The notes beneath the pieces are model-generated. The model saw nothing but the letters and a program-made list of their open reading frames with translations, did not search any database and was not told the DNA's origin. 38,182 nucleotides of DNA from Oscillospiraceae bacterium (GTDB lineage Bacteria > Bacillota > Clostridia > Oscillospirales > Ruminococcaceae). The translations under genes were made by a program, and so were the position numbers. The stretch lies in contig CAAGDZ010000015.1 in NCBI GenBank assembly GCA_900768735.1, positions 1 to 38,182 on the forward strand, given 5' to 3'. Below, piece by piece: positions 1-28,585 of this stretch. Within the stretch, counting starts at the first letter, position 1; every line of letters begins with the position of its first letter.

Positions 1-1
1 A

Positions 2-376
2 ACCGTTATTAATAGCGCTATAGCCTCTACAGAACTTGAAAAGGGATTTAAGCTTGAGAAATCGCATATATTATATTTCCTTAAAAAATTCCAAACGGCA
101 GATTACACAGATAGAGAGGCGCAGAAAAGGCTTGTTCAGACATTCATCAATTCCATTTATGTATATGATGATACATTGACTATAAGCTATAACTATTCGG
201 ATAACGGAAATAGCAGGACCTTAACGCTTGACGATATGGCGCGTATTGCCGATATGCAAGAGTTAAATGTGTTCGACTGCCGCGCTCCTAAGTCCACCAG
301 AGCGCGCGCATACGAACATAGTATAATTTGCTACGGTTCCATATTCGCAGTAAAAATAAACCTCCGGGGAGAATAA
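2..376 (+). CDS. Large serine recombinase (integrase), C-terminal part; 5' end outside the window
   Basis: Frame 2 is open from base 2 to TAA at 374-376 and reads ...FQTADYTDREAQKRLVQTFINSIYVYDDTLTISYNYSD..., a C-terminal signature I recognise from Firmicutes large serine recombinases. It converges on the phage operon. The catalytic domain is not visible. Confidence 0.75.
   Translation, partial: TVINSAIASTELEKGFKLEKSHILYFLKKFQTADYTDREAQKRLVQTFINSIYVYDDTLTISYNYSDNGNSRTLTLDDMARIADMQELNVFDCRAPKSTRARAYEHSIICYGSIFAVKINLRGE
270..318. other. Candidate attP site (imperfect inverted repeat) inside the integrase 3' end
   Basis: TGTTCGACTGCCGCGCTC (270-287) and GAGCGCGCGCATACGAACA (300-318) form an imperfect inverted repeat around CTAAGTCCACCA. 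Confidence 0.45.
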
Positions 377-393
377 CTCTCGGAGGTTTATTT
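354..393. terminator. Bidirectional intrinsic terminator between the convergent integrase and accessory operon
   Basis: AAATAAACCTCCG...CGGAGGTTTATTT inverted repeat with A/T tails on both sides. Confidence 0.8.
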
Positions 394-442
394 CTTTCGT
401 GTGTAGCTCAGCGACGTTTGAATTGCTCAAAAGCTTATATAG

Positions 443-463
443 CCGCGCCCACAAGGGGCGCGG
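443..463 (-). other. DGR target-recognition hairpin downstream of VR2
   Basis: CCGCGCCC-ACAAG-GGGCGCGG (8-bp GC stem, 5-nt loop), identical to 9487-9507 and 24 nt from the VR2 end. Confidence 0.85.
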
Positions 464-468
464 ATTTT

Positions 469-1272
469 TTATAAGGATTTAGGAATACGGAAGCAGACGG
501 GCGCGGCAATGTTACCGTTGGAGGCGTAGTAGGTGGCGCAACTGCCGCCGGTGTGGACACCGCACCAAACCGAGGAGTTACCCGAATAAGGTGAGTCCGT
601 CCAGTACCATTCTGTTTCAGCACCGCCCATAATATCAGACCGTACTCGATTATGCACATCTTTGTAGTATTCAAGCTGCTCATATACTCCTTTATCACCA
701 AAGCATTTATCCGCAGGGAATATTTCGGAGGCGGCGGGTAAAAATAATAACTGGCCGCGGCTATATTTCTCACCGCTGCTTTTGATATGTAGTCTTTCGG
801 TAGAAATTATAAACTGCTTTAAATCCGGGTGAAGTCTTTCCAAAACTGAATTCAGAAAATCATCAACACCTGTATGCGGACCGCGCCAACCGAGGCAATC
901 CCGGCTTTCAAAGCGATAAGCTCCATTATCAACATCTGTAACAACCCATTCGACAGGCGTTGAGTCCTCAAGGGTGTTATAAATTATATCGCCTACTGAT
1001 AAAAAGAGGACCCCGCTTTTAATCTGCTCAATAACCGCCGGCCACGGGTTAGATATGTACTTATTGCCGTTGAAAGGAACCGTTGGGGTACATTCTGATT
1101 TATTTTCCGCCTGTATAGTAATTCCTGACATAGCGCACTCCATTTTTTCAATTTTACCAAGCGTTTCTACAAAAAGCTTGAAAGAGTCACGCACTACATC
1201 TTTGGCGCCCTCGGCCTCAAAAACTATGCGGTCGGAAACAGAGAAAGCTATTTTTAATTCGGAATTTGACAT
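469..1272 (-). CDS. DGR target protein 2 (remote target; C-type-lectin-like/DUF6273-like domain with C-terminal variable region)
   Basis: 267-aa ORF with an RBS. The C-terminus SPYSGNSSVWCGVHTGGSCATYYASNGNIAAPVCFRI is encoded by VR2. The core (NPW..VGD..LFLPAASEIF..QLEYY..WYWT) parallels target 1. Confidence 0.88.
   Translation of the reverse strand: MSNSELKIAFSVSDRIVFEAEGAKDVVRDSFKLFVETLGKIEKMECAMSGITIQAENKSECTPTVPFNGNKYISNPWPAVIEQIKSGVLFLSVGDIIYNTLEDSTPVEWVVTDVDNGAYRFESRDCLGWRGPHTGVDDFLNSVLERLHPDLKQFIISTERLHIKSSGEKYSRGQLLFLPAASEIFPADKCFGDKGVYEQLEYYKDVHNRVRSDIMGGAETEWYWTDSPYSGNSSVWCGVHTGGSCATYYASNGNIAAPVCFRIPKSL
488..595 (-). repeat. DGR variable repeat VR2
   Basis: Ungapped alignment to TR 8837-8944 over 108 nt with 15 mismatches, all at TR adenines (T on the plus strand). 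Confidence 0.95.
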
Positions 1273-1307
1273 GTTATTTTTACCTCCAATTATTTTTTAT
1301 AAAATTT

Positions 1308-1901
1308 TTATATGCCTAATTGATTGCAAGCCATGTAGAACCCTGTGGACCAAAGATACACCCTCGGGTGAATTCTTCTGCCGCAGCAATACAGCCACTC
1401 GTAGCTATCAGACATAATTTGCTCAATTACTCTTGATAAGCTTTCACTCGGAATAAAACTGTTTGACGTACTGTTGATTACCTCAGCCTCGATAAATTCC
1501 CACAATTCTTGTTCACTGCTAAACTCGTCGCTGCTTTTTAAATATTCATCAATGCAGTCTTTATCAAGGTAGCTTTTTATATCGGAAACTACATCATCAC
1601 TGTAATAGGTGTATATGTTGGACGCACACTGTATTTTTCCGATATAATAATCAACGTTATTATGAATAAAGCCTTTTATTTTTGCAGGAGTCAAGGGATT
1701 GTACCAAGTAGCTATTGAATCGCCTATATCTCCGCTTACGATTAAAGAGCCTCTTAACTTGTCAACAATATAATTGGCGTAGTAATCGCCGCTGCCGTCC
1801 TCTCTGCGCCAATCAATGATTGTGTACCTGTCGCTGTCTTGAATAAGTGTAGCCTTATGGTTTTTAAAAGCTTCCTCGTACTGATTTTTAATCTCGCTCA
1901 C
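1308..1901 (-). CDS. Hypothetical phage protein
   Basis: Part of ORF 1308..1988. The likely start is GTG at 1901, preceded by GGAGG and overlapping the upstream gene. Confidence 0.7.
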   Translation of the reverse strand: MSEIKNQYEEAFKNHKATLIQDSDRYTIIDWRREDGSGDYYANYIVDKLRGSLIVSGDIGDSIATWYNPLTPAKIKGFIHNNVDYYIGKIQCASNIYTYYSDDVVSDIKSYLDKDCIDEYLKSSDEFSSEQELWEFIEAEVINSTSNSFIPSESLSRVIEQIMSDSYEWLYCCGRRIHPRVYLWSTGFYMACNQLGI

Positions 1902-2226
1902 AGTATTCCTCCATTTTTGCTCCGCAGTTCGGGCAGTATTTAAAAATTTTTGATACTCCTGACCCCTTAAATTTGTATAATTTTCCACACACAGAACAAC
2001 TATACACCCTCACCCAATCACCCCATATATTCTTTTTTTTATTATGGAGCCATTCCCCATGGTTAACAGGTGCAACGTCGGCGGAGGGCTGTAAATAAAT
2101 AAGACTTTTGACAGACAGCAAGGCATCTCTATATCCATTTATATATCTGCTGTTATTTATGCTCTCAGTAGGTATAAGTTCATCTATCAGTTTTTTCAGC
2201 GTTTCAACGTCTTTATATTCAGCCAT
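1888..2226 (-). CDS. Hypothetical protein with C-terminal zinc ribbon (DVAPV..HGEW..CSVC..CPNCGAKM)
   Basis: Two CxxC pairs. ATG at 2226 with a GGAG RBS. Common accessory family in clostridial phages. Confidence 0.75.
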   Translation of the reverse strand: MAEYKDVETLKKLIDELIPTESINNSRYINGYRDALLSVKSLIYLQPSADVAPVNHGEWLHNKKKNIWGDWVRVYSCSVCGKLYKFKGSGVSKIFKYCPNCGAKMEEYCERD

Positions 2227-2590
2227 TTTTACTCCTATCCATTTTTGCTCCGCAGTTCGGGCAATAACTGAACCTGTAATCTTGTTCGTTTGAATGCGTA
2301 CATTCTCCGTTTTCAAAGAAATACCCATCTGGAAATAATCCAAATCCACAGATATTACATTGAACAAGCCCTTTATTACAAACCCAATTCCCGTGACGAA
2401 CAGGTGCAACGTCTGATTTTATAACGTCAAAACACGTCCTTAACCATTCGGTAACGTTTTTCAGTTCAAATGAACCGTATCCAATATGCCATGTATTATC
2501 TGCTGTGTCATAATATTCTATTGAATAATAGGGCTTATCAACATTACCATTAACAACAATTTTGGGGTCTATTGCTTTAATCTTATCCAT
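2219..2590 (-). CDS. Hypothetical protein with C-terminal zinc ribbon (paralogous C-terminus to 1888-2226)
   Basis: DVAPVRHGNW..CNIC..YCPNCGAKM; ATG at 2590 after AAAGGA. Confidence 0.75.
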   Translation of the reverse strand: MDKIKAIDPKIVVNGNVDKPYYSIEYYDTADNTWHIGYGSFELKNVTEWLRTCFDVIKSDVAPVRHGNWVCNKGLVQCNICGFGLFPDGYFFENGECTHSNEQDYRFSYCPNCGAKMDRSKNG

Positions 2591-2603
2591 TGAATTTCCT
2601 TTC

Positions 2604-3104
2604 TCAGCATTTATGCGTTTTGACATTTTTTCCCTCCGTCATTTCTTTTGCAAGATTATCAATAATTTCAGGAGTAAACTGATAAGCTTTGACAAATTCA
2701 CAATCGCCTGAATACGAGAAGTATGTTCTTGACGCCCTCTTTTTAAGCTCCTCTACATACTCCTCTATAGCTTCCGCTCTTATGTTATTGACCTGTTTTT
2801 GAGGTCCTTTTTGTACTTTTTCTGTAAGTTCCCTCAATATTTCAGCTGCACGGCGGAATGGGATCTCCCTTGGGTTATCAAGCGGGTCCTTTACATAATC
2901 GCCAATCATAAGTCCGTCACTGTGTTCTATCGCGTATGCCCCCGCCCGCATAGCGAGTTCTGTTTCTTCGTCGATTAAGATTACATTACTTGCAGTGAGA
3001 AAATCCGCTATAAAATCGTAAATAGCTACGGGGTTTTCGCCCCCTGTACCGTATGCCGCTATAGCATTTTTTATAAGCCAAGATAATTTTTGATTATCAG
3101 CCAT
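2604..3104 (-). CDS. Hypothetical phage protein
   Basis: 166-aa ORF, GGAGGG RBS, packed in the operon. Confidence 0.7.
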   Translation of the reverse strand: MADNQKLSWLIKNAIAAYGTGGENPVAIYDFIADFLTASNVILIDEETELAMRAGAYAIEHSDGLMIGDYVKDPLDNPREIPFRRAAEILRELTEKVQKGPQKQVNNIRAEAIEEYVEELKKRASRTYFSYSGDCEFVKAYQFTPEIIDNLAKEMTEGKNVKTHKC

Positions 3105-3109
3105 AATAT

Positions 3110-3412
3110 TTAACCCTCCTTTTTCTTAGTCACTTTTTCCAGTAGAACGCCGTTCATATCCCACAATCTGTCATTGTTCGTATTATTAACGCGTCCAAGT
3201 TCTGAAATTATTGTATCTTTTACGGCGATTTGGCTTTCAAGGGCGCTTATTTTTTCCTGTAAGGATTTTATTTCGTCGTCCTTAAAGCCGAGCAGCATAT
3301 CACTATGCCATTTCAGCTCTTTTTTCTCACCCTTGCTTGATAAGAAAATTACTAAAATAGCAATTATGCTGACAGCCATAATCGCCGCAGTCGTTTGCAT
3401 TTCAGGGGTCAT
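3110..3412 (-). CDS. Hypothetical membrane-anchored coiled-coil protein
   Basis: N-terminal hydrophobic helix (AAIMAVSIIAILVIFL) followed by a heptad-like segment. ATG at 3412 after GGAGG. Confidence 0.65.
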   Translation of the reverse strand: MTPEMQTTAAIMAVSIIAILVIFLSSKGEKKELKWHSDMLLGFKDDEIKSLQEKISALESQIAVKDTIISELGRVNNTNNDRLWDMNGVLLEKVTKKKEG

Positions 3413-3417
3413 TATTC

Positions 3418-3681
3418 TTAAGCCTCCTTTCTTCTGAACGCCCATACAGGGCAGCCCTTTTTAGGCTTTGACATCTCAAGCCACCAAGTATTACGCGGTC
3501 CCGCACCGGGGTCGTCATCATCAATCCCATATCCGTAACGAACATAAGCATTGGTTTTTTCGACCTCCTCAACACCGAGTTCTCTTTTCGCTATTTCGGT
3601 TGCCTCCTGCTCCGTGTAGCGCTCCTTGCTGACCGCTACCGGGTAATCTCCGGTAAACGCGTCATAATCAAATTTGCTCAT
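3418..3681 (-). CDS. Hypothetical phage protein
   Basis: 87-aa ORF with ATGA overlap with the upstream gene and an AGGAGG RBS. Confidence 0.7.
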   Translation of the reverse strand: MSKFDYDAFTGDYPVAVSKERYTEQEATEIAKRELGVEEVEKTNAYVRYGYGIDDDDPGAGPRNTWWLEMSKPKKGCPVWAFRRKEA

Positions 3682-4676
3682 TCTTTTAAGTCCTCCTTTT
3701 CAAGTTTTACTCCGATTTTATATTGCAGTTCCCGATAACCTAAACCGTTCTTAGGCTTAAAAACCCCGTCCACATACTCCCCGCCGCGCATGCAGTAATC
3801 GTACAATTTCGGGTGTGTTACAGCCATTCTTTGAAACCTATTAGGTTCTTTTTCCATGTGGACGCCGAATAAGCAGAACATACAGCCTGTCCGTTCTACG
3901 CCTGTATTGAAATACTCGCCGTTTTCGTTCTGTTTTATCTCCCCGTATATAGAGCAGTAGTCAAGATTATTTTCCACGATATAACGCAGTATGTCCTGAC
4001 TCGTCCAAAATCCGAGCGGTTTGCTCTGTGGGTGTTTGCCCTTGATAATGTTGCAGCCGGTTTTTTCATAGGTTCTCCGGCGCATAATGCTTTCATCTTG
4101 AACAATGCCTAAGAATGGCCGCCGCCCCGTTTCGCGTTGGTATTTATACATAGGGCGCTTTTTCATAACATCACAACATTTTTCGGAAAAATCAACATCA
4201 CCGTTTATAAGCGGTTTCCAACATTCGGGCAGTTTTCCCATTTTCCCGCGTTCATCACCATACAGTAGATAATTGCGGAACCGTTCGGATAAATTTCCAT
4301 GCCGCAGCTTTCGTATTTTTGCGGCGGTTTCCTTTGAGGGAAAAGGATAACCATATTTTTGCAGAACTTGAATAAAGCTCATTTCGGGTTTAATCTCTAC
4401 AATATTTTTCTGCCTGCGGACAAATTCAACGATTTCAGGATATTCCAACCCTGTGTTTACAAAAACAGCGGGTATATCTTCGCCAATCGTCTTACGGACT
4501 AAGTGTAGCAGTACCGTACTGTCCAAGCCGCCCGAAAAAGATATGTACGTTTCAAATTGCTTGTTAAAATCAACAATCCGCGTTTCAGTAAGATTAAGCT
4601 TTGCCTCATACGGCAAATTTTTTCTTTGCGCAAAAGCCCAGTCTTTTAGTTTTAAATCTACATCTTGAATATACAA
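3678..4676 (-). CDS. Phosphoadenosine phosphosulfate (PAPS) reductase family protein
   Basis: PP-loop SFSGGLDSTVL, NTGLEYPE, KCC and RTGCMFC cysteine motifs. TTG start after AGGAGG. Confidence 0.85.
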   Translation of the reverse strand: MYIQDVDLKLKDWAFAQRKNLPYEAKLNLTETRIVDFNKQFETYISFSGGLDSTVLLHLVRKTIGEDIPAVFVNTGLEYPEIVEFVRRQKNIVEIKPEMSFIQVLQKYGYPFPSKETAAKIRKLRHGNLSERFRNYLLYGDERGKMGKLPECWKPLINGDVDFSEKCCDVMKKRPMYKYQRETGRRPFLGIVQDESIMRRRTYEKTGCNIIKGKHPQSKPLGFWTSQDILRYIVENNLDYCSIYGEIKQNENGEYFNTGVERTGCMFCLFGVHMEKEPNRFQRMAVTHPKLYDYCMRGGEYVDGVFKPKNGLGYRELQYKIGVKLEKEDLKE

Positions 4677-4725
4677 ACAGCTAACCTCCTTTTATTTATA
4701 GCTAAATAAATTTAGCCTTGTTCTT

Positions 4726-4754
4726 AATATAGCATAAAAAATTATACTTGTCAA
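4726..4754 (-). promoter_or_regulatory. sigmaA promoter of the accessory operon, with a palindromic operator in the spacer
   Basis: Minus strand reads TTGACA-17nt-TATATT with an extended TG. The spacer palindrome AGCATAAAAAATTATACT (4731-4748) recurs at 28936-28953. Confidence 0.75.
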
Positions 4755-4819
4755 TTGCTTTAGTATATTTTTTTAACGAGTATTAAAAATAAATTATACT
4801 GATATAACAACCCGCATTT

Positions 4820-5075
4820 TTTGTAACAGTTACGCGCACGCGCGTATATACACCCGTAACAGGCGGAATAGAGAGAACAGGGAGTATATTTCTCTCTATT
4901 CTCTCTAATTTACCCTTTAATAGAGTTTTTTTGTAACATTGTAACACTATGTCAAAATCCCCTTTTGTAGTGCGTATTTGCTTATAATTTATCAGCCGTA
5001 ACATTTTGTAACTTTGTAACATTAGCAGACGTAACATTTTTTGAATGTTACGGCATTGTTACGCTAATGTTACAT
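4820..5075. repeat. GTAAC/GTTAC iteron-hairpin element, copy A
   Basis: 12 GTAAC/GTTAC pentamers and a GAATAGAGAGAA..TTCTCTCTATTC hairpin. Blocks 4905-4946, 4995-5021 and 5031-5062 are identical to copy C at a constant 31400-nt offset. Confidence 0.85.
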
Positions 5076-5085
5076 GATTTTGAGC

Positions 5086-5124
5086 ATAAAAAAATAACGG
5101 CGGTCTTATCCTGACCGCCGTTAT
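5086..5124 (-). terminator. Intrinsic terminator ending the lysis operon
   Basis: ATAACGGCGGTC..GACCGCCGTTAT stem followed by a T-run on the minus strand. Confidence 0.85.
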
Positions 5125-5130
5125 CGTTTA

Positions 5131-5895
5131 TTATTTTATTGCAGATTTGACAATCCATTGGTCCTTGTCACCTGCGAGTTTAACATAGGTGTATTTTGTA
5201 TCAGCGTCTACAGTGTCGGAGCCGATTACTATTACGCATTTACTACCAACTTTAAGCAATCCGAGGTCGGCTCCTTTAGTGGAGGGCTTACTACGAATAA
5301 CAGCATTGTAGGCAAGCGTTACCGGTTTCAGCTGCGGGGCGTTATCCTGAGCAGCGTACTCAATATAGGGGCATTTGAACCAGTGGGTCCAACCGTTCCA
5401 GTCTGAAACTTTGGCCTTACTTACTCCGTCCCCTCTCGCAGACAAAGTGCTTTCGATTAACCACCCGTCCCCGATATAAACTCCCACATGAGGATGGGTT
5501 TTACTGTATAAAATTAACCCCGGTATTTCGGGCAGGGTATTAATTGGCCCTTTTTCGGTGGCGCGTTGGAACATAAGATTAGCGTTTATATCGGGAGGAT
5601 AGCCCGATTTACCGTACATAGGAGAACCGGTACCGCCATTTTCTTTGCCGCTCCATAAATACGATTTTACTAAGCCGACGCAGTCAACTCCATAGCAGTC
5701 TTTTCCGAAAAGTTCAGAAAGCTCTTTCCACCGCGCCTCTGTATATCCGGTTCCTGCTTTAGTACCGTATATCTTTTTGAGGGTTGCATATTGCTTTTCG
5801 ATTGTTCGGAGAATGCCGCCCCACATATATTTGGTACGCAGATTAAGCGCCATTTTTACATGCTTGACAAGCCCTGTATTTGTATGCTTTTCCAT
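5131..5895 (-). CDS. Endolysin (NlpC/P60-CHAP-like peptidase plus SH3-like cell-wall-binding domain)
   Basis: Y.WGG, DCVGL (catalytic Cys), HVGVYIG (His) and a C-terminal AVIRSKPST SH3-like segment. Lies downstream of the holins. Confidence 0.85.
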   Translation of the reverse strand: MEKHTNTGLVKHVKMALNLRTKYMWGGILRTIEKQYATLKKIYGTKAGTGYTEARWKELSELFGKDCYGVDCVGLVKSYLWSGKENGGTGSPMYGKSGYPPDINANLMFQRATEKGPINTLPEIPGLILYSKTHPHVGVYIGDGWLIESTLSARGDGVSKAKVSDWNGWTHWFKCPYIEYAAQDNAPQLKPVTLAYNAVIRSKPSTKGADLGLLKVGSKCVIVIGSDTVDADTKYTYVKLAGDKDQWIVKSAIK

Positions 5896-5897
5896 AA

Positions 5898-6260
5898 TTA
5901 CGACTCCTTTTCAGCCTCTTTTTGCTTTTCCTCTGCATTCATAATATATTCGCCTATTTGGTTGCCGTCTTCAATCCATTTGCGCATGGTACGCAGCGCA
6001 ATATCTACCCACCGTGAAAAAGTTTCGGGCGAAATAACAGTAGCAATTTTAGGGAAAGCCTTAATAAATTGGTCGTACACCAATCTTAATTTGTATTGTC
6101 CTGTCTTTGCCCCGAGCTGCTTTTCAGCCTCGGAAACGGCATAGGTGAGCCACATTATAATACGCTTTTTCTGATTAAGAACCGCCCATATTATAACTAC
6201 GGCAGCACACATTGCGGCGATAATGTAAGCAATAATAACTATTATGTTTTCAATCTGCAT
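5898..6260 (-). CDS. Holin-like protein (LL-H-like, one N-terminal transmembrane helix)
   Basis: TM helix then AVSEAEKQLGAKTGQYKL; directly upstream of the endolysin. ATG at 6260 after GGAGG. Confidence 0.7.
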   Translation of the reverse strand: MQIENIIVIIAYIIAAMCAAVVIIWAVLNQKKRIIMWLTYAVSEAEKQLGAKTGQYKLRLVYDQFIKAFPKIATVISPETFSRWVDIALRTMRKWIEDGNQIGEYIMNAEEKQKEAEKES

Positions 6261-6573
6261 TTTGTTCCTCCTTTTCCTGATTAATGGTTTCAATCAGCCC
6301 GAATTTTGCGGAGGTGTATGCACGGACAGAATTCTGTATTGCGTAACCCACAAAGCTTATGCCTGACGCACCCCAAAGACTGTCTATTATAGCAATAGAT
6401 AATTCCGAAACAGGGTTTTTATCAAACCAAGCTAAAACAAAGCTTGCAGACGTATATATAATTGAGATTATAATACACGCTGCAAGCCATATTTTAGAAA
6501 ATTCGCGCTTCTTTTTGGTGCATTTTACAGGCTTTTTCTTTCGTGCGTTACCGGTTTCGATATTTATACGCAC
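6250..6573 (-). CDS. Two-TM membrane protein of the lysis module (holin-like)
   Basis: Basic N-terminus, EFSKIW, and two hydrophobic segments. Confidence 0.65.
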   Translation of the reverse strand: MRINIETGNARKKKPVKCTKKKREFSKIWLAACIIISIIYTSASFVLAWFDKNPVSELSIAIIDSLWGASGISFVGYAIQNSVRAYTSAKFGLIETINQEKEEQNAD

Positions 6574-6579
6574 AATAAT

Positions 6580-6864
6580 TTAACCCCCGAATACTAATTG
6601 AACTATCGCCATACCGAGTGCGCCTACGACTGCACTTATAAGCCCGGTGCCTACAAGCTCCCATTTTTTGGCAGGTTTTTGCTCAATCTCGGTAACCTTG
6701 CTTTCGATTTTGTTTAAATCTTCACGCATGTATTTAACCTCTTCAACAATACTGCGTATATTCTCAATAAGCGATTCCTGTTTATCCACGCGTTTATGTA
6801 AGGATTTTACCGAGCTTTCAACTGCGGTTATTCGTTCCCGTATTTCTACGTCGTTCTCGTCCAT
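6580..6864 (-). CDS. XhlA/holin-like protein (coiled coil plus C-terminal TM)
   Basis: ERITAVESSVKSLHKRVD coiled coil and a C-terminal hydrophobic helix. Confidence 0.7.
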   Translation of the reverse strand: MDENDVEIRERITAVESSVKSLHKRVDKQESLIENIRSIVEEVKYMREDLNKIESKVTEIEQKPAKKWELVGTGLISAVVGALGMAIVQLVFGG

Positions 6865-6900
6865 TTATATCACCCCCGCCGTGTAGCAATACACCTGTTA

Positions 6901-7368
6901 TTATTCCGTTTCCTCTGCGGCAACTACCTCGCTGTTGGTACTGTCGCCGCCGTTGTCCTCCTCGGTTTCGGCGGAAACCTCACCGTCGGTACTGTCAATA
7001 CTGTTTTCCTCGGAGGTTTCGGCAGGAGCCTCGCCGTCGCTGTTATCGTCTGCTGTGATGTCGCTATCTTCTGTTTCGACATTCATTACAGCAGTTTCGT
7101 CGGCTTCGGCGGATTCCTCGGTATCAAACATAGGCGGCTCCGGCTCGGGTTCAGGTTCGGGCATTTCCTCAAGCAGCTTTTCAAGCTCATTGAGTTTTGC
7201 ACGCCATTCTTTACGGTCGGCAATCTTCTCTGCGAAAGGGGCGGTTTCCTCCCCGTTCATTAAAGCCTCGGTGACCTTTAATGCAATATAATCGCTGTCC
7301 TTAAGCAGGATTTTGAGTGCATTAATCTCCCCAATGATTTCCTCGCGTGTCATTGTTGTTTCGTTCAT
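6901..7368 (-). CDS. Putative tail-fibre assembly/chaperone-like protein with acidic repetitive tail
   Basis: LLKDSDYIALK..RKEWRAKLNELE motif of the kind seen after tail-fibre genes in clostridial phages. The C-terminal half is D/E-rich with ~17-aa repeats. Confidence 0.55.
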   Translation of the reverse strand: MNETTMTREEIIGEINALKILLKDSDYIALKVTEALMNGEETAPFAEKIADRKEWRAKLNELEKLLEEMPEPEPEPEPPMFDTEESAEADETAVMNVETEDSDITADDNSDGEAPAETSEENSIDSTDGEVSAETEEDNGGDSTNSEVVAAEETE

Positions 7369-7374
7369 GGTTTT

Positions 7375-8547
7375 TTACCTCGTTTCTTTTTTTATTGCCC
7401 ATGGTTTATAGCCAAAAAGACTATAAAACAATTGGTCCATACTGTGGATTGAACGGTACGCATCGCGCGTTTTCATAGAACCGCGCCAAGACATATAGGA
7501 TTGTGATACCTGCTCAAGGGTCATTTCTCCTTTGTCGTACAGGCGCTTTTGTTTTTTAAGCTTTCGCCGCTCCCTGACTATTGCGCTATGGTCCGGCTTT
7601 TTAATAACCTTTCCTGTTTCGGTCAAAAAGTATTTGGTTTTCAAAAAGGTGAAACCGTGCGAAAGCTTAATGATTTGAGTTTTCTTAGGATTTACAATAA
7701 TGCCCCATTTTTCGTATTCTTCAAAAAGCTTTTTCAGAAAATATCTTGCTTCCTCTTTGGTACGAAAAATGTCATAGCCGTCGTCCATATAACGGTTATA
7801 GTATTTATGGCGCCATTGGTCTTTAATCGTGTGGTCGATTTGATTTGGAAAAGCTATTGCAAATATCTGACTGTCCTCAGGTCCGATATACAGCCCGCGT
7901 CCTTTGTCGGCGTCAGATTTATATGGATTAGAGGAGTGGACAAAACTTTTTGCAAGAGCATTAAGCTTGTTATCTTTAATGTAACGGTCGATATGTAAGC
8001 ATAATTTATCGTGAGGTATATTACCGAAATAGTTCTTGAAATCTATCACTACAATATACCCCTCATTACTGCCCGTTTCATTGTAATATCTATGTAGGTG
8101 AGTTTCGCACCTATCCGCAGAAAATGATACGCCTTTTCCTTTTAACGACGCGCCATTATCGTATATCAAATTGTGTGAAAGAATTGGAACGAGCGCATTA
8201 GTGCATACGGAGCGCCTTAATACACGGTCAGAATAGTGCAGACTATGAATATCGCGGCGTTTACCGCGTTCAATTATCGAAAAGGAATAATATCCCTTGC
8301 ACTGATACTTTCCGCTGTAAAGTTCTCTTGACTGCATAGCCGAATATTTAAGCATATTTGCCTCATATCGGGCAACAGAGGCTTTCCATAATACGCCTCT
8401 GCGCGACTCTAAATGTGCCTGTAACAGCGCACCCGGACTTGCGACAACATCAAAATTATCATATTGTGCAATTGCCTCGCGCCGTTTTTGTTCGCGTGCA
8501 GTTTTTCGGCGCCAATAACGGGCTTCGTGTCGTTCTTCAGATGTCAT
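7375..8547 (-). CDS. DGR reverse transcriptase
   Basis: ERGKRRDI, DRVL, IDFKNYFGNIPH, GLYIGPEDSQ (the SQ motif typical of DGR RTs), YNRYMDD, GFTFL. No maturase or endonuclease domain. Likely start MTSEER at 8547 (GAGGT RBS); the ORF extends to 8613. Confidence 0.95.
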   Translation of the reverse strand: MTSEERHEARYWRRKTAREQKRREAIAQYDNFDVVASPGALLQAHLESRRGVLWKASVARYEANMLKYSAMQSRELYSGKYQCKGYYSFSIIERGKRRDIHSLHYSDRVLRRSVCTNALVPILSHNLIYDNGASLKGKGVSFSADRCETHLHRYYNETGSNEGYIVVIDFKNYFGNIPHDKLCLHIDRYIKDNKLNALAKSFVHSSNPYKSDADKGRGLYIGPEDSQIFAIAFPNQIDHTIKDQWRHKYYNRYMDDGYDIFRTKEEARYFLKKLFEEYEKWGIIVNPKKTQIIKLSHGFTFLKTKYFLTETGKVIKKPDHSAIVRERRKLKKQKRLYDKGEMTLEQVSQSYMSWRGSMKTRDAYRSIHSMDQLFYSLFGYKPWAIKKETR

Positions 8548-8836
8548 ATAATTTATACCTCGCGGAGTGTTATTGTAGGGGCGCATTGTGTTCTCCTTTG
8601 CGATAATAGCCATGTAAACGGGTACTCGCCGGGGTTCCTCCGGCTCTATCGCCTATCCCCGCCCATGCAAGCAGCGTCCGGCTAATCGCGTCAAGAAAAG
8701 CGCCGTTATATGACAAGCGGCGCTGTATATATTTATCCTTTTCGGGACGGTTATCCTCTCCTTCCGTAAATAAAAAAAATAACGAGCTTGATTTCAGCTA
8801 TAAGCTTACTTTAAACTTGCAAGGCCGTTGGTATTT

Positions 8837-8970
8837 CGGAATCAGACGGGCGCGGCAATGTTACCGTTGGAGGCGTTGTTGTTGTTGCAATTGCCGTTGT
8901 TGTTGACATTGCACCAATTCGAGGAGTTACCCGAATAAGGTGAGAGCAACCACCAATTGTTACGGCTGCC
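8837..8970 (-). ncRNA. DGR template repeat (TR)
   Basis: Non-coding copy of the VRs between avd and RT. In the VR frame it has 15 AAC/AAT codons and 35 adenines, and ends GTC TGA TTC CG (IMH*-like) where both VRs read GTC TGC TTC CG. Confidence 0.95.
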
Positions 8971-9006
8971 AAAGCAAAGAGTGCAGAGAATAACCACTGA
9001 AATATT

Positions 9007-9468
9007 TTATTGTCTTAGTAATTTGGTTTTGCGCTTGCACCCGCGTAAAAGTTCTTCCTCGCGGATCATCAAGGCAGTTATAAGCGCAATATGTTTATTT
9101 ATGCGGATTTTATTATTATACCTCGCGTCGGTTTTATCGACTACAAGTAATGTGTCTTTCCACAGGTCGTTTACCGCACTTTGCAGTCGTAAATAAATCG
9201 GGTCGAGATAATCAATAGCCGCCTGAAATAAATCTTTGCGCTGCATAACTTGTTCGGGAGTGTATGCGTATATCTTATTTGCTTTCACATAAGTATCAAT
9301 CATACACTGCATAAGGTTTATAATCGGGTAGGTATATATCATACGCTGCCGCTTCGGTATATTCTTTTCGTTCATGAGGAAAGAACGCAGTTCGTGTAGC
9401 AAGTCCTGACCTGTTTTGAAAAATTCCATATCAGATGTTTTTCTGAATCTTGCAAGAACATTACTCAT
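9007..9468 (-). CDS. avd: DGR accessory variability determinant (Avd)
   Basis: 153-aa basic helical protein between the target gene and TR (IPKRQR..Y..PI..KANKIY..R..L). ATG at 9468 with AGGAGG. Confidence 0.8.
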   Translation of the reverse strand: MSNVLARFRKTSDMEFFKTGQDLLHELRSFLMNEKNIPKRQRMIYTYPIINLMQCMIDTYVKANKIYAYTPEQVMQRKDLFQAAIDYLDPIYLRLQSAVNDLWKDTLLVVDKTDARYNNKIRINKHIALITALMIREEELLRGCKRKTKLLRQ

Positions 9469-9486
9469 ATAGTTTTTACCTCCTGA

Positions 9487-9507
9487 CCGCGCCCACAAGG
9501 GGCGCGG
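9487..9507 (-). other. DGR target-recognition hairpin downstream of VR1
   Basis: CCGCGCCC-ACAAG-GGGCGCGG, 19 nt from the VR1 end and identical to 443-463. Confidence 0.85.
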
Positions 9508-9519
9508 AACCTAAAAGAT

Positions 9520-10422
9520 TTATACACGGAAGCAGACGGGCGCGGCAAGGTAACCGTAGGAGGCGCTGCTGTTGTAGCAAAGGCCGTCGCCGTAGACAGC
9601 GCACCAACCCGAGGAGTCACCCGAATAAGGCGAGAGCAACCACCAATGGCCACGGCTGCCGTTTCTGAATTTAAGACGGTTCATATTTCCTGCGAAAAGA
9701 GGGTACTGCAAGCCTGAGCCGCCTGCCGAAAAGCCCTTGCCGCCCCATATAGGAGTACCGTACACCTCGCACTCGTCGGGGAGCCATAACTTACCGATAT
9801 TAGCCCAGCCCCATTGATTATCGTCGGTAAGCAAGCCAGACGCACTATATCTTTTTGGCAGTAAAAATCGCTTTTCGATAATAACGTTTTTAAGCGCCTC
9901 GGGTAAGTAATAATATACGCCGTCTGCGGTATAATCAACATCAACCGTTTCAGGATTTACAGCAGTTCCATTAGGTACGCTGCCCGATAACGAGTTGAGG
10001 TAAAGATAAAAGTCAGAAGCGAGCCACGGGTGATTTTGATTTGTGGTACCGTTGTTGTAGTTGACCTTATTTATGGGGTGCAGGGTAGGCCATAATTCTT
10101 TGCATATAAAGTCGATATGCGAGCCTACAGTAGTATCGCTGTAATACTTGTATGTGTTAATTCCCGCTATCTGCGCATTTAAGGTTACGCCGTTTGTGGT
10201 AGTAAAGGGGATATAATCTCCTACATGAATTCCTGTAAAATCCTCTGCGGATATACGAGCTTTTATCCAAGCCCACGGATTTCCGTTATAAGGAGCCGCC
10301 GCAATTTCATTCTCGAATTTTGTAGCAAGATTTTCACCTGCATAAACACGGTCCTGTCCTGCTCCTAAAAGCGAGTGCTGTTCTCCGCCATTAATCGTCA
10401 TACGATCAACATAAATAGCCAT
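9520..10422 (-). CDS. DGR target protein 1, putative receptor-binding tail protein (C-type-lectin-like/DUF6273-like)
   Basis: Last gene of the tail-fibre cluster. The C-terminus GSRGHWWLLSPYSGDSSGWCAVYGDGLCYNSSASYGYLAAPVCFRV is encoded by VR1. Confidence 0.9.
   Translation of the reverse strand: MAIYVDRMTINGGEQHSLLGAGQDRVYAGENLATKFENEIAAAPYNGNPWAWIKARISAEDFTGIHVGDYIPFTTTNGVTLNAQIAGINTYKYYSDTTVGSHIDFICKELWPTLHPINKVNYNNGTTNQNHPWLASDFYLYLNSLSGSVPNGTAVNPETVDVDYTADGVYYYLPEALKNVIIEKRFLLPKRYSASGLLTDDNQWGWANIGKLWLPDECEVYGTPIWGGKGFSAGGSGLQYPLFAGNMNRLKFRNGSRGHWWLLSPYSGDSSGWCAVYGDGLCYNSSASYGYLAAPVCFRV
9527..9660 (-). repeat. DGR variable repeat VR1
   Basis: Ungapped alignment to TR 8837-8970 over 134 nt with 22 mismatches, all at TR adenines. 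Confidence 0.97.
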
Positions 10423-10425
10423 TTT

Positions 10426-10947
10426 TTAAACCTCCGTATTCTTAATATTTATGCTTAATAACCCGTTGCTTATTGTAGCTGATACGGGTAATTGTGATAC
10501 GGGGATTTCCCCGTTATCGTTCAGACTTGCAACATATCCTGCTTGACCGATATTATCTTTTACAAGAATATCCTCCGCAGCTATGCCGCCGTTTGCTATG
10601 CCGCCGCCTGAGTTAAATACCGCAATTCTGCCCTCGGGAACGCCCGGCAGCTTATCGACTTTACCGCTTATGTCAGGTCCGAGCGGAATCCATTGAGCTG
10701 TACCCTCGTATTCGCCCCATGCATATTCTGAGCCGCTAATTTCCGTACCCTCTGTGCCTTTATACTTGACCGTGTATGTGTAACCGAGTTCCTTTTCCAC
10801 ATTATCAAGGTCTGCATAATAGTCAACCTGTCCTATATACCGCATACCTTTAGGAAATGCGGCAATTATCGTGTTGACATAAGCCATAGCGCGTTTATAC
10901 GCATTCTCTGCCATAACAATTGCGTATAAAACTGACTGCTGATCCAT
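10426..10947 (-). CDS. Putative tail-fibre/adaptor protein
   Basis: GMRYIGQV..L..GYTYTV..EYAW..WIPLG..GKVDK and GYVASLNDNGEIPVSQLP motifs common in phage tail fibres. Confidence 0.65.
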   Translation of the reverse strand: MDQQSVLYAIVMAENAYKRAMAYVNTIIAAFPKGMRYIGQVDYYADLDNVEKELGYTYTVKYKGTEGTEISGSEYAWGEYEGTAQWIPLGPDISGKVDKLPGVPEGRIAVFNSGGGIANGGIAAEDILVKDNIGQAGYVASLNDNGEIPVSQLPVSATISNGLLSINIKNTEV

Positions 10948-10963
10948 GGTATAGCCTCCTTTC

Positions 10964-11197
10964 CTATTGAGCTACGAATTTTCCCGATTCGTCAGCAAGA
11001 TAAACCTTGTTCGGGGAGCTGTTTACAACATACAGCATTGACATAGGCGCAAAAGTATCTTTTGCGGATAAGCCCTCGACATTGGAACCGTCCACGGGTA
11101 AAATAGCGGGTAACGTATCAGCTGCTATTATAACGCGCACAATTCGGTTTCCCTGCGGTCCTATGCTTACGACCTCAACGGGTGCTGCGAGTTTCAT
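10964..11197 (-). CDS. Small tail-region protein
   Basis: 77-aa ORF starting MKLAAP after AAGGAAG. Confidence 0.65.
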   Translation of the reverse strand: MKLAAPVEVVSIGPQGNRIVRVIIAADTLPAILPVDGSNVEGLSAKDTFAPMSMLYVVNSSPNKVYLADESGKFVAQ

Positions 11198-11216
11198 AAT
11201 AATCTTCCTTTCTTGT

Positions 11217-11585
11217 TTATTCCTCATCAAGCTCCTGCAATTCGATAAAGCCGCTTAATAAATCAAGGTCCTTATAGGAAAGCCGGATATTTTCTGTTGT
11301 AGGTATTGATATTACGGGAATATCTTCCTCCGTATCAACATCAAGTATCTCATTCAGCCTTTTGACGAATTCGGTTAAGTTTTCGTCCTTAACTTTCCAT
11401 TCTCCCTCGCTTATTTCCTGACCTAACTCCTGTATGAGCTTGTTACGGTTTTCGTCAATAAACTTTAACTCCTTATTTACCTTTGAGAGCATTTTGCTTA
11501 CTCTGTAAAGATATTTAGGGGAAAGTTCGCACCCTGCCAACTTATCAAGTGCAGGTCTTGCTTGTAAGATTGTTCCTAATTTCAT
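11217..11585 (-). CDS. Conserved small phage tail-region protein (DUF1617-like)
   Basis: 122-aa helical protein directly after the tail-tip gene, GGAGG RBS. Confidence 0.6.
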   Translation of the reverse strand: MKLGTILQARPALDKLAGCELSPKYLYRVSKMLSKVNKELKFIDENRNKLIQELGQEISEGEWKVKDENLTEFVKRLNEILDVDTEEDIPVISIPTTENIRLSYKDLDLLSGFIELQELDEE

Positions 11586-11599
11586 ATTGTGTAGCCTCC

Positions 11600-14248
11600 T
11601 TATCCGGTCATAAGACCGAGATGTATTAATATGTTTGCTAATTTTGATACAGCAGCCGTAACATTAGAACTGCTTATAGAAGAGTACCCAAAAGACTCAC
11701 GAGAGCGCGGGGAATGCCCGAAAAATCCTATAGAGCTATAACTTGAACCGATTGTTGCATTTCCGCTTACTGATAAATTACCCGAGGAGTAAATATTTCC
11801 TGCGTATAATGAGAGGGAGCCGAAATCAACGCTGGATCTTGATAACGAATAGCTGCCGCCGCCAAAATATAGAGTGTTTGCGGTAACACCGCCCGAAACG
11901 CTAAGGGAAGATAAACCGCTGATTGATGATGTGGAAATACTATTAACGCTCAATGTGGTAGCGTTTATTGTTGACGCTGAAATAGTAGTGACGTTAAGAG
12001 TTTTTATGTATGCGGCTGTCCACCAATAGTAATACTCGCCAAGCGACCACCCGGAGTCATTAACGTTAGGGCTAAAGGATTTACTGTTAAAATTCACAGC
12101 TATGCCTGTTGTACCGTTGTAATCATACCCCATATAAATGGTTGCCGAAGAAAACAATTGAATATGACTGAAACATTGATTTGATACGCCGTCGCAGCCG
12201 ATATACAACCTGTTAAAATAGGACCCGGTAATAACCGGATATGACGTATCTCCGACTTTTGTATATAGCGTATACATTTTTATATTCGACGCATCAATTA
12301 AATCTGCGCGGATAGTACCGGAGGTTATATTTGACGCATTTAAATTGGTGATATTAACTATAGAGGCGTCAATTGTACCTGTTTTGATATTATCCCCATT
12401 TATAGTAGTGCTTCCTGCGTTAGAAAGAGAGTCGAATGTAACCATACCTGAAAACTTTATCGTCTTGCTTGATAATTCCGTACCGTTTGCAGATAGGGTT
12501 AAAACCGAGGATTCCTCGCCGTTTTTTACCGAAAGGGAAATGCCGCTAATGGCATTTGCTGTTATCATTGCCGCTTGTTCAGCGGTAGTACCTGTAATTA
12601 CTCCATGGGATAGTACAGCACCGCCGCTTGACAGCTCTATGGTTGATACTAAATTTTGCCCTTTTTGTTTTGTATCAACCAATATTTCAAGACCGTCAAT
12701 AGTGTGCTGAATGGCGGAGGTAATTTTATTTTCGGTTTCCTCGGTAGTAGAATAATCGGTTAGGTCAATTCTGTTTGCGGATATTGTACCCGTCTTTATA
12801 TTATCTCCGTTGATTATCGTTGCACCTGATGTAGATAGGTCATTAAAAGTAACCATACCCATTATGTCAACATCTGCGGTAATGGTATATTTACCTGTTG
12901 TAGTGTTGAAATATATACGGTCAACCCAGCCCGATTCCTCGTCGTATGACTGCATAGAGAACGTGGAGGCGTTTGCGGTAAGCCGGGCAGTTATAAGGTC
13001 ATTTACAACAAGTTCGCTTACAAAGCCCTCCGCGCGCGTTATGCGGTTGCCGAAATAAGTCTGATTAGTCTTAAGGGTGCGCTTTAAGCTTAAATCCCGC
13101 GGAGATATGAAAGGATATTCTTCTTCCGTTTCCTCTTCTGCGCCCGCCGATATATTGCAGGTGCAGCTTACGGAACAATTCATCACAATGGTTTGCAGTA
13201 CAACGGTATGTAAAGTGCCGTCCCGCGCATTAAATGAGATTGTGTCGCCCAATTCCAAGCAGGGATTGAGATATGCGGTTTGTAAATCATACGGCTCATA
13301 AACTGCCCCGTACAGCACCGACTGATTTGGTATGTTAAGGTTTCCGTTTATTATTTCGCCGTATAATAATTTAAGGCAGCCGTTTTGGATTGCCGCGGCG
13401 GCTATGTCAAGACAGCCATTATTCACAGAACTGCTTGACGGATTGCAAAGCGCCGCCGCTACCCCCTGTGTAGCGTAGTCACACCGAACGCTTATAGTCA
13501 TTCCCGTGTCGTCGCCTGATGTGAATTGATTTTCCGCATCATCAACAAGAATTACCCTCGTTATGGTTTGGGGCTTACCCTGTTTTGTGTACGTCCCGTG
13601 CGATAAACCGAGAACCTGCAACGGCTCCAAATCAGGAGCGGTAAATGGTACAAGCCGCAGCTTTCCCGCCTCCGTCATTATCCAACTGCCGCCGTGTACT
13701 GCCGCTATCATTCCGAGAACCTCTGAAATTAAGGTATCATCATTCGGATATGATACAACATAATCTTTTCCTGTGTGGATTTTTGTTCGGGAATCGACAG
13801 GCACTCCCATTATTGAGGATATTTCATTTACAACAGCCGACATGCTCTGCGGCCATTCCGTAAAAACAGATTTATCGCGGTATGTCTGACCTGCCTTTAT
13901 CATATTATCAAGGCAGGTCAGCTTTAACGGGCTTGTACCGCTGCGGGAGGTAATATAGAATTTGCCCTGCGGAACCCAATCTGTTGTTGTGGTACCGTCC
14001 GGGGATTTAAGGCGGCAGTAGGCATTTACAGGAGCCGCTTTAGGTATATCCTCAACCGGGAAAATCGTAACTTGCAGCTGCCCCGTACATACTCTGCCGA
14101 ATGTCGGCGAGTCAAGCAGCGGTTTTGTAATAACGGGCGTGTCTTTTATTCGGTCGTTATAATATACAATACCGTTTATATCGAAACGGTATTCGGTAAC
14201 GTGAGCCGAGGCAAAAAGCGCCGCCCATTTTGCAGGTTGATTTTGCAT
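11600..14248 (-). CDS. Tail tip/baseplate hub protein with fibre-like C-terminal region
   Basis: 882 aa following the distal tail gene. Carries NPCLELGD, a duplicated GMVTF..INGDNIKTGTI segment and an S/T/G-rich beta-type C-terminus. Confidence 0.75.
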   Translation of the reverse strand: MQNQPAKWAALFASAHVTEYRFDINGIVYYNDRIKDTPVITKPLLDSPTFGRVCTGQLQVTIFPVEDIPKAAPVNAYCRLKSPDGTTTTDWVPQGKFYITSRSGTSPLKLTCLDNMIKAGQTYRDKSVFTEWPQSMSAVVNEISSIMGVPVDSRTKIHTGKDYVVSYPNDDTLISEVLGMIAAVHGGSWIMTEAGKLRLVPFTAPDLEPLQVLGLSHGTYTKQGKPQTITRVILVDDAENQFTSGDDTGMTISVRCDYATQGVAAALCNPSSSSVNNGCLDIAAAAIQNGCLKLLYGEIINGNLNIPNQSVLYGAVYEPYDLQTAYLNPCLELGDTISFNARDGTLHTVVLQTIVMNCSVSCTCNISAGAEEETEEEYPFISPRDLSLKRTLKTNQTYFGNRITRAEGFVSELVVNDLITARLTANASTFSMQSYDEESGWVDRIYFNTTTGKYTITADVDIMGMVTFNDLSTSGATIINGDNIKTGTISANRIDLTDYSTTEETENKITSAIQHTIDGLEILVDTKQKGQNLVSTIELSSGGAVLSHGVITGTTAEQAAMITANAISGISLSVKNGEESSVLTLSANGTELSSKTIKFSGMVTFDSLSNAGSTTINGDNIKTGTIDASIVNITNLNASNITSGTIRADLIDASNIKMYTLYTKVGDTSYPVITGSYFNRLYIGCDGVSNQCFSHIQLFSSATIYMGYDYNGTTGIAVNFNSKSFSPNVNDSGWSLGEYYYWWTAAYIKTLNVTTISASTINATTLSVNSISTSSISGLSSLSVSGGVTANTLYFGGGSYSLSRSSVDFGSLSLYAGNIYSSGNLSVSGNATIGSSYSSIGFFGHSPRSRESFGYSSISSSNVTAAVSKLANILIHLGLMTG

Positions 14249-27589: not shown

Positions 27590-28360
27590 TTAGTCGTTTT
27601 TGATTTCATCTGCGAGTGCAGGGATAGCATTTGTAAGTGCATTAATGATTATTGACGCACGAGGCTCGCGGGGGAATATCCTGCCGTGCCTGTACCTGCA
27701 TATCTGAACACGGTCAAGCCCCACAAGCTGACCTATGGCGGCAGCCGACCAACCGTAACGATTTATAGCAGTATTGATATAATCAACTGCTTTTAACCCG
27801 TTTTCACGGTCCTGCGGGAATTTGCTTAAGTCAATACCGCCTCCGGTAACTGCACCGGGGATAACCTCGATTCCCGCCTTGCTCAACATCATTGTGACAT
27901 ACGGGAGCCGCTCATTACGGCAGCTTGCTATAATCTGCGCGGCTTTCATATAATCATCAACGGTTAAATTCCTCTGCGGTTCCGCAAAGCTGTCATCGTC
28001 ATTATCGGAGCGATATGCGCCCGTTCTGCGGATTGCGGGTAAAACCTCGCTTGTTATCCACCGCTTGAATTTCTTAGCGGAGGGCAGCTTGCTCGACAAG
28101 ATAAGGCTGTATAACCCGCTTTCGTTGATTATATTGGTTTTACTCTGTCCGATAGGCACATTCCCATTTTGGGAATCTGCTATGTCAAGCATAACAAACT
28201 GTTTATCCTCAGGCTCAACGTGAGTAGATACCGCCTTACTACTGTTGCTATACCCCAAAGCATTTGCAACATCTTTTCCTACGAACCACGTTACCTCATC
28301 AATGTCGATTGTGCGGACGCGCCCGAATTCGGGATTTGTAAATGTAATAACCTCATTCAT
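27590..28360 (-). CDS. Bro-N domain antirepressor with C-terminal HTH
   Basis: FTNPEFGRVRT..WFVGKDVA.ALGY..INESGLYSLILSSKLPSAKKFKRWITSEVLPAIR; C-terminal Xre-like helix-turn-helix. Confidence 0.9.
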   Translation of the reverse strand: MNEVITFTNPEFGRVRTIDIDEVTWFVGKDVANALGYSNSSKAVSTHVEPEDKQFVMLDIADSQNGNVPIGQSKTNIINESGLYSLILSSKLPSAKKFKRWITSEVLPAIRRTGAYRSDNDDDSFAEPQRNLTVDDYMKAAQIIASCRNERLPYVTMMLSKAGIEVIPGAVTGGGIDLSKFPQDRENGLKAVDYINTAINRYGWSAAAIGQLVGLDRVQICRYRHGRIFPREPRASIIINALTNAIPALADEIKND

Positions 28361-28579: not shown

Positions 28580-28585
28580 AGATTT

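Follow-up and report, generated by a model that had tools for sequence, protein, structure and literature searches.

Diversity-generating retroelements (DGRs) in which one template repeat (TR) serves two variable regions (VRs) have already been described from phages. Passages of the study by Buttimer and colleagues (PMC11792537) report two VRs in Lelie, Lagaffe_CP and CP11; the targets of Lelie and CP11 are a large and a small DUF6273 protein with the VR at the C-terminal end, both VRs of CP11 vary across cognate genomes, and no read-level signal is reported for Lelie. Similarly, sections of Baykov et al. (PMC10743442) describe two-target DUF6273 DGRs in the gut phages nd4 and nd12 (tentaclins), with VR2 shorter than VR1, and cite earlier work according to which ~13% of prokaryotic DGR cassettes have two targets. 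In an excerpt of a preprint on the Toutatisvirus DGR hotspot (bioRxiv 10.1101/2024.10.15.618418), a distance of 17,480 nt separates the TR from the second VR gene. The DGR considered here is found on contig CAAGDZ010000015.1 of an Oscillospiraceae bacterium (assembly GCA_900768735.1); this one whole contig of 38,182 bp, with 43% G+C and without a terminal repeat, was analysed at full length and is referred to as the window. The closest named genome is that of Roseburia phage Shimadzu (LR596903.1), whose reverse transcriptase (RT) is 46% identical and whose target-2 homologue, orf43, is 34.5% identical to the window proteins. The window element is a real, complete DGR with two bona fide targets, of an already known design. 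It is best explained, at a probability of roughly 85%, as the intact DGR of a temperate siphovirus-like phage in which one TR rewrites two lectin-fold protein ends.

One template repeat and two variable regions

All DGR genes lie on the minus strand, so that TR adenines appear as T on the plus strand. The parts of the element are as follows, with IMH denoting the initiation of mutagenic homing site.

8837..8970, minus strand: TR, noncoding, with TGA in the VR frame where both VRs have the Cys codon TGC
9527..9660, minus strand: VR1, the C-terminal end of target 1, with a GC-rich IMH-like block at 9533-9546
488..595, minus strand: VR2, residues 227-261 of target 2, with a GC-rich IMH-like block at 494-507
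9520..10422, minus strand: target 1, a 300-aa large DUF6273 protein encoded by the last tail-module gene, with VR1 at its C-terminus
469..1272, minus strand: target 2, a 267-aa small DUF6273 protein with VR2 at its C-terminus, adjoining a truncated serine integrase gene
7375..8547, minus strand: DGR reverse transcriptase (RVT_1, E 2.2e-15; phrog_1423, E 1.7e-68) with the motifs IGPEDSQ and YMDD
8535..8759, minus strand: structured RNA, Rfam RT-2 (RF03077), between TR and RT (76.9 bits against a gathering score of 40, E 5.5e-16)
9007..9468, minus strand: accessory protein of 153 aa, supported as an Avd-like four-helix bundle by fold, position and conservation, with an AGGAGG site ahead of the gene
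9487..9507, minus strand: GC hairpin 3' of VR1, identical to the copy at 443-463
443..463, minus strand: GC hairpin 3' of VR2, with an 8-bp stem and a 5-nt loop, a candidate DGR target-recognition hairpin

Alignment of the TR with VR1 was ungapped over 134 nt and contained 22 mismatches, all at TR adenines (22/22), while alignment with VR2 was ungapped over 108 nt and contained 15, again all at TR adenines (15/15). As the TR has 35 adenines per 134 nt, and 30 in the 108 nt common with VR2, the hypergeometric chance of adenine-only mismatches is 1.6e-16 for VR1 and 1.8e-10 for VR2. Sequence homology breaks off sharply at both edges of each alignment, and VR2 equals the TR at 78/78 non-adenine positions. 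These alignments and mismatch counts, together with the positions of the RT, the accessory open reading frame (ORF) and the targets, had been set out in an earlier note on this DNA and were reproduced in full. A third TR copy was not found in the source genome bin, which is 2.3 Mb in size and 79% complete.

The two targets are paralogous across the whole DUF6273 domain, and the three repeats could on that account be regarded as ordinary paralogous sequence shaped by drift or gene conversion, without any retroelement. This explanation is vanishingly improbable: the 37/37 differences fall on the adenines of one copy only, that odd copy is noncoding with a TGA in frame and is flanked by an Avd-like gene and a DGR-type RT, and the same pattern is repeated in 16 other genomes. 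Drift between paralogs is refuted by the mismatch spectrum.

In the VR frame, the TR contains 15 AAY codons, 13 of which lie within the VR2 span, and a recount agreed with the numbers given before. Adenine mutagenesis of AAY codons gives access to 15 amino acids without creating a stop. Both VRs are mutated at ten common positions, at four of them (8842 included) to the identical base; without 8842, an identical base occurs at 3/9 shared positions, about as independent hits predict. The two VRs were mutagenised independently, as previously proposed.

Position 8842, located 3' of the GC-rich block GCCGCGCCCGTCTG, is A in the TR and C in both VRs, giving TGA in the TR versus the Cys of the conserved CFR ending in the VRs. 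Across 13 genomes (the window, Roseburia phage Shimadzu and 11 IMG/VR contigs), the corresponding site reads CTG-C-TTCC or TTG-C-TTCC in 26/26 VRs and CTG-A-TTCC in 13/13 TRs. Because this C/A difference is constant in 13/13 genomes, it is a fixed VR/TR marker and no product of mutagenesis, and it is read as a putative IMH/IMH* difference marking acceptor and donor. With 8842 set aside, the mutagenic differences number 21 in VR1 and 14 in VR2. The earlier attribution of all 37 mismatches to mutagenesis is therefore to be amended: all do fall on TR adenines, and one per VR is a fixed IMH marker.

Target-site signals and cassette components

The GC-rich 14-nt block GCCGCGCCCGTCTG is common to the TR, VR1 and VR2, in three copies within the window. 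A copy with one mismatch at 31406-31419 (plus strand), inside the large terminase gene, is without flanking TR homology and was taken as chance. The 21-nt perfect hairpin is present in exactly two copies in the window, versus 0 expected, 19 nt past the end of VR1 and 24 nt past the end of VR2. On the plus strand, the copy at 443-463 is followed by a T run and was called as a terminator-like site, resembling a terminator of the integrase gene. No hairpin was detected within 70 nt after the window TR by a script scoring perfect stems only. Throughout the 13 genomes, a GC hairpin follows 13/13 VR1 and 12/13 VR2, the exception being contig 168540 with a degenerate copy; after the TRs, the perfect-stem script found no hairpin in 12/13 genomes and, in the remaining one, a weak stem of 6 bp that is AT-rich. 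Lineages differ in hairpin sequence but retain the stem-loop form, and even within one genome the two VRs can have different hairpins, as in Shimadzu and contig 029848_3. The hairpins 3' of the VRs fit the requirement for a hairpin or cruciform described for the BPP-1 DGR, and by analogy the IMH and hairpin would function here as in BPP-1. Thus, as expected of a DGR, the IMH at the 3' end of each VR differs from the TR copy and has a hairpin downstream.

The RT reading frame stays open to 8613, and relatives align from residue 23. Its best sequence match in the PDB is the BPP-1 bRT (8ub7_A, E 1.7e-13), with group II (5.8e-07) and retron-type RTs scoring lower. The (I/L/V)GxxxSQ motif is characteristic of DGR RTs, and the window enzyme, a DGR-clade RT, has its catalytic motif intact. 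The affinity to bRT, the motifs IGPEDSQ and YMDD, the IMH-like ends and the shared hairpin bear out the central claim of the earlier note, namely that the window carries a complete phage DGR in which one TR serves two VRs.

The RT-2 match in the window covers the full model, and RT-2 lies between TR and RT in 7/7 relatives scanned. It appears to be the TR-RT spacer element of this DGR clade and, by analogy, probably corresponds to the BPP-1 spacer RNA, the primer of cDNA synthesis. In passages of their paper, Weinberg et al. (PMC5737381) locate RT-10 in the TR-RT spacer of BPP-1 and offer the guess that other RT motifs serve other DGRs. A literature search for RT-2 combined with DGR returned nothing.

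An AlphaFold2 (AF2) model of the accessory protein is a helical bundle with a predicted local distance difference test (pLDDT) score of 86.7. VIA-align matched it to the Avd-like structure 2gsc (Z 14.6), to 2rld (Z 12.8) and to bAvd (4dwl, 8ub7, 8ub8, 8ube and 8ubb) with Z 12.0-12.8 and a root-mean-square deviation (rmsd) of 2.3-2.6 A over 106-109 residues, and homologues occupy the same slot in relatives. Several results weigh against this assignment. Z scores of 12-15 are, by the tool's own note, within the chance range for helical bundles, and de novo designed bundles match the model equally well. Furthermore, the protein has no family in Pfam, PHROGs or NCBIfam, searches of the PDB with the single sequence and with a 16-sequence profile gave unrelated proteins only (E 0.1 or worse), and the model reached E around 1 at best in Foldseek. 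Since designed bundles score as high, fold similarity, position and conservation across relatives support an Avd-like product of 9007-9468, short of proof. The earlier designation as avd is accordingly retained for predicted fold, position and conservation, and dropped as a sequence-family match, for which none was found. In the group of relatives with 57% RT identity (L009, L010 and similar), the accessory gene encodes 211-216 aa with an extra Pro/Ala-rich C-terminal tail of ~60 residues; the 153-aa protein of the window is without this tail.

Together, these components would operate as follows, the order of steps being adopted by analogy from BPP-1. The TR would be transcribed together with the downstream RT-2 RNA, and the RT and Avd-like bundle would copy the TR RNA into cDNA with adenines misread. 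The cDNA would then replace any DNA stretch that ends in an IMH-like GC block followed by a GC hairpin. Two such acceptor stretches are present: VR1, at the end of the tail-module gene adjoining the cassette, and VR2, 8.9 kb off, in the terminal part of the small paralogous gene for a C-type-lectin-fold protein, next to the integrase. With two acceptors, the same ligand-binding tip of 35-44 residues would be varied independently in both genes.

Layout across relatives and the remote variable region

In 16 other genomes, a single TR was found to serve both an adjacent VR and a remote one within a homologue of target 2; these comprise 11 IMG/VR contigs, Roseburia phage Shimadzu and the loci L051, L089, L096 and L103. 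The term 'remote target' is reportedly employed in the DGR survey of Wu et al. (PMC5758913). IMG/VR relatives of the RT (45-57% identical) carry the same cassette, with an adenine-type TR/VR pair in 29/35 loci and none in 6. Self-BLAST of the 35 RT loci never gave two VRs within the flanks; the second VRs lie outside the flanks of the RT loci and surfaced on pairing with target-2 loci. An alignment search with target-2 homologues returned many of the RT contigs, of which the 11 with a TR in hand were tested and two further shared contigs were left out. In 11/11 of these contigs, the 3' end of the remote gene aligns with the TR over 97-113 nt; of the 13-18 mismatches, 13-17 are on A. The two contigs with contiguous genes place the remote gene 15-16 kb downstream of the RT, on the same strand; in the 45% group it is 10 kb downstream, and contigs that start elsewhere give a linear gap of 40-44 kb from RT to remote gene.

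Both VRs are 8-9.5 kb apart, as in the window, in L051, L089, L096 (a metagenome-assembled genome, MAG, of Oscillospiraceae) and L103 (an Anaerovoracaceae MAG). L103 has the closest RT found, at 63% identity, and is syntenic with the window through RT, holin, endolysin, a phrog_5051 gene and target 2, followed by convergent integrase and repressor genes. Among 34 further loci of the target-2 family, 29 are without a TR or RT within 10 kb. A search of viral contigs with the target 2 protein alone gave 0 loci, and a search of the genomes of 60 relatives gave one weak match (G019, E 1e-6). The pairing of an adjacent large with a remote small DUF6273 target can be taken, from the comparisons made, as the usual, lineage-typical and previously described layout. 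The earlier description of this pairing as unusual must therefore be withdrawn, as the same pairing occurs in 16 other genomes and two-target DUF6273 DGRs of gut phages are published. Phages of Lachnospiraceae, Oscillospiraceae and Anaerovoracaceae have this layout in common.

Variability of alignment columns was counted over 10 closely related IMG/VR phages (9 rows for VR1, one row with a 3-nt indel having been dropped):

TR: adenine columns varying 1/34; non-adenine columns 5/91
VR1: adenine columns varying 32/34; non-adenine columns 7/91
VR2: adenine columns varying 25/25; non-adenine columns 7/67

In the 200 nt upstream, the varying columns number 32 for VR1 and 51 for VR2. The comparison of relatives recommended earlier, looking for an invariant TR and variable VRs, thus gave the anticipated result, with adenine columns nearly constant in the TR (1/34) and almost all varying in the VRs. 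Private changes of the TR to a non-adenine base are present in VR1 of the same genome every time and in VR2 in 3/4 cases; the marker reached VR2 in 087016 (twice) and 029494_331.

Whether VR2 of the window is live was considered on the same material. A near relative, P0014, has a protein 91% identical to target 2 and differs from it at 10/13 AAY codons of VR2, at 0/22 other VR2 codons and at 15/232 residues outside VR2. Because its VR2 differences are confined to AAY codons, the remote VR has been rewritten since the two phages diverged. Furthermore, the 78 non-adenine positions of VR2 equal the TR although the targets are only 40% identical over the 91 residues of their best alignment, which points to recent rewriting from the TR.

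Several observations weigh against a live remote site and against the element as reconstructed. Contigs 168540, 061827 and 077031 (VR2 loci L073, L074 and L076) share one identical VR2, and the C-to-T TR marker of 061827 reached VR1 and is absent from VR2. GTTTG replaces GTCTG in the VR2 IMH of three relatives (083022, 061827 and 077031), and the hairpin of 168540 is degenerate. In addition, the VR sequences are those of a metagenome assembly, in which several variants may have been merged into a consensus. Megablast of window positions 1-12000 against a phage collection gave no match, a degenerate TR/VR pattern gave 0 matches each in viral and metagenome contigs, and the RT at E<=1e-40 had no match in 107 other genomes of the genus. 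The shared VR2s, the unpassed marker, the IMH variants and the degenerate hairpin indicate that a remote VR can fall out of use, and the remote VRs of some relatives may, judging from these signs, no longer be rewritten. L068, like L073, L074 and L076, may have a remote VR that is falling out of use.

VR2 of the window could by the same token be a frozen relic, a former target kept by selection on the protein with VR1 alone live, and 15/30 TR adenines are unchanged in it. Such a history is quite improbable for the window, where the IMH block and hairpin of VR2 are letter-for-letter equal to those of VR1, no drift is seen at any of the 78 non-adenine positions, and P0014 differs within VR2 at AAY codons only. 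A rather unlikely alternative is an element that is intact in sequence and silent, for example unexpressed in the lysogen, with VRs that record past activity. In passages of PMC11792537, the Faecalibacterium phages Lelie, Lagaffe_CP and CP11 are reported to have no read-level VR variation though cognate genomes varied, which would suit this alternative; in the window, by contrast, the open frames and motifs are all intact, the RT-2 RNA fits the full model and neither VR has non-adenine drift. The zero non-adenine mismatches and the VR2 pattern of P0014 support an element that is probably functional; its present activity on both targets, as proposed earlier, is an inference.

Target proteins, prophage context and known systems

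Target 2 scores 23.5 bits against Pfam DUF6273, at the cutoff, and nearly all of its 93 homologues found have a precomputed PF19789 assignment. Its AF2 model (pLDDT 84.2) has a C-type lectin fold at residues 83-267 and its own N-terminal beta-hairpin and helix. The best VIA-align match of the model, over residues 87-267, is the N-domain of 9qa6 (Z 15.1, rmsd 2.1 A, 163 residues), a Thomasclavelia ramosa IgA peptidase whose matching N-terminal domain is DUF6273; the corresponding domain of a homologous enzyme is given this name in a passage of PMC12402451. TvpA (2y3c, Z 8.2) and Mtd (1yu0, Z 5.4) score far under 9qa6, and some forty C-type lectin domains (CTLDs) score about Z 5.3-6.6. Target 1 has a Pfam DUF6273 score of 19.0 bits, under the cutoff, and aligns with the target-2 family over residues 45-300 (hhalign probability 99%, E 2.4e-18) with an insertion of ~50 residues, from which the two targets are taken as paralogous. 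In BLASTP, they share 40% identity in the last 91 residues and little elsewhere. A C-type lectin fold with the VR as a C-terminal surface element, as in DGR targets, was thus found for target 2 from its model and is predicted for target 1 from the profile alignment. The gene of target 1 comes after the tape measure gene (14639-19051) and the tail gene 11600-14248, and its Shimadzu counterpart, orf22, is annotated as a tail fibre; given this context, target 1 is probably a receptor-binding tail protein.

Nearly all window genes are on the minus strand. In that direction, a primase/helicase gene (cut at the contig end), a helicase and a nuclease are followed by the small and large terminase, portal, head genes and major head protein, and then by tail completion, tape measure and tail protein genes, three small genes, target 1, the accessory gene, TR and RT. 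Downstream of the RT are an XhlA-like gene, a holin-like gene and an NlpC/P60-like gene, the last of which probably encodes the endolysin (the match is weak and under the Pfam cutoff). The last stretch before target 2 contains a PAPS-reductase-like gene and several unassigned ORFs. At the contig end lies one further feature:

2..376, plus strand: 3' part of a serine integrase gene, truncated where the contig ends and converging on target 2, in the context of a prophage integrase end

The translation of 2-376 alone has no Pfam or PHROG match; against residues 413-528 of the 532-aa L103 integrase (phrog_95) it shows 44% identity (E 2e-29), and the counterpart in L103 occupies the matching position. 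With this C-terminal fragment of an integrase, the phage is evidently temperate, and it looks siphovirus-like, the assembly breaking within the integrase gene. One contig end falls inside that gene and the other inside the primase/helicase gene, so that the lysogeny/early region between them is absent from the assembly.

Other observations concern this context. A strong terminator-like hairpin at 5093-5125 (minus strand; consensus match) has a 13-bp stem and a T run and lies after the endolysin gene. The sigma-70-like site that scores best in the region, at 4726-4754 (minus strand; consensus match, TTGACA-17-TATATT with TG, 11/12), stands ahead of the PAPS-reductase-family gene at 3678-4676 (minus strand; PF01507, E 4.8e-20; phrog_424), which lies between the lysis genes and target 2. 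The block 4676-469, ending in target 2, may form a separate transcription unit. Anti-repressor (Ant-like) and repressor-like genes at 27590-28902 (minus strand) lie between the portal and terminase genes, an odd site for regulators. The tmRNA genes of L096 (13757-14105) and L032 (17944-18296) are a few kb past the DGR-side or target-2-side end of related prophages, which suggests ssrA as the integration site in this phage group.

The position of the remote gene also admits a decidedly doubtful reading, in which small target 2 would be no virion protein at all and would instead be the product of a prophage-end accessory gene, a diversified cytoplasmic lectin-fold binder that might, for instance, sense or block other phages or bind a variable host or environmental ligand. 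Target 2 has no obvious signal peptide (judged by eye), lies beside the integrase in the window and L103, stands behind the terminator-like site 5125-5093 and the promoter-like site 4754-4726, and has its Shimadzu homologue among early genes, all of which point in this direction. If so, a single TR would tune a structural and a non-structural protein together.

As an intact DGR rewriting two protein ends, the window element resembles the BPP-1 DGR (mtd-avd-TR-brt) in the order of target, accessory gene, TR and RT, in TR/VR differences confined to adenines and in a VR that forms the C-terminal end of a protein with a C-type lectin fold. In both, the VR is followed by a GC-rich IMH and a hairpin. 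Likewise, both have a structured RNA between TR and RT, which for BPP-1 is RT-10 (in passages of PMC5737381). The window differs from BPP-1 in having two targets versus one and RT-2 versus RT-10 as the spacer RNA; its accessory protein is without detectable sequence similarity to bAvd, and its targets are DUF6273 proteins with only a weak match to Mtd (Z 5.4).

Lelie and CP11, as far as the passages on them describe, are like the window in having one DGR, two VRs and a large and a small DUF6273 protein, although the Lelie RT is only 28.5% identical to that of the window. Similarly, nd4, nd12 and Toutatisvirus have, in the sections at hand, a phage DGR with one TR and two DUF6273 C-type-lectin targets. 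There, however, one target is described as tentaclin or Hoc-like, and its VR either lies close to the 5' end (nd4/nd12) or precedes Ig-like domains, whereas both targets of the window are of single-domain type with the VR at the 3' end; RT identity to the window is 33% for nd12 and 30% for nd4. Shimadzu has the tail fibre (orf22), an annotated Avd, TR, RT-2 RNA and RT in the same order as the window. Its TR differs from VR1 in orf22 at 18 mismatches over 129 nt, 17 on A, and from a second VR at the end of orf43 at 15 over 111 nt, all on A. Unlike the siphovirus-like window, Shimadzu has myovirus-type tail genes (baseplate J, P2 gpU), and its orf43 has a methyltransferase and Erf as neighbours among the early genes, 13.8 kb downstream and past the integrase. 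The comparative result, namely the conserved layout, TR markers carried into both VRs and RT-2 in the TR-RT spacer, contributes more than the window itself. The window, whose two VRs have IMH and hairpin in common, is therefore a clean, intact case for the study of how one TR serves a distant site.

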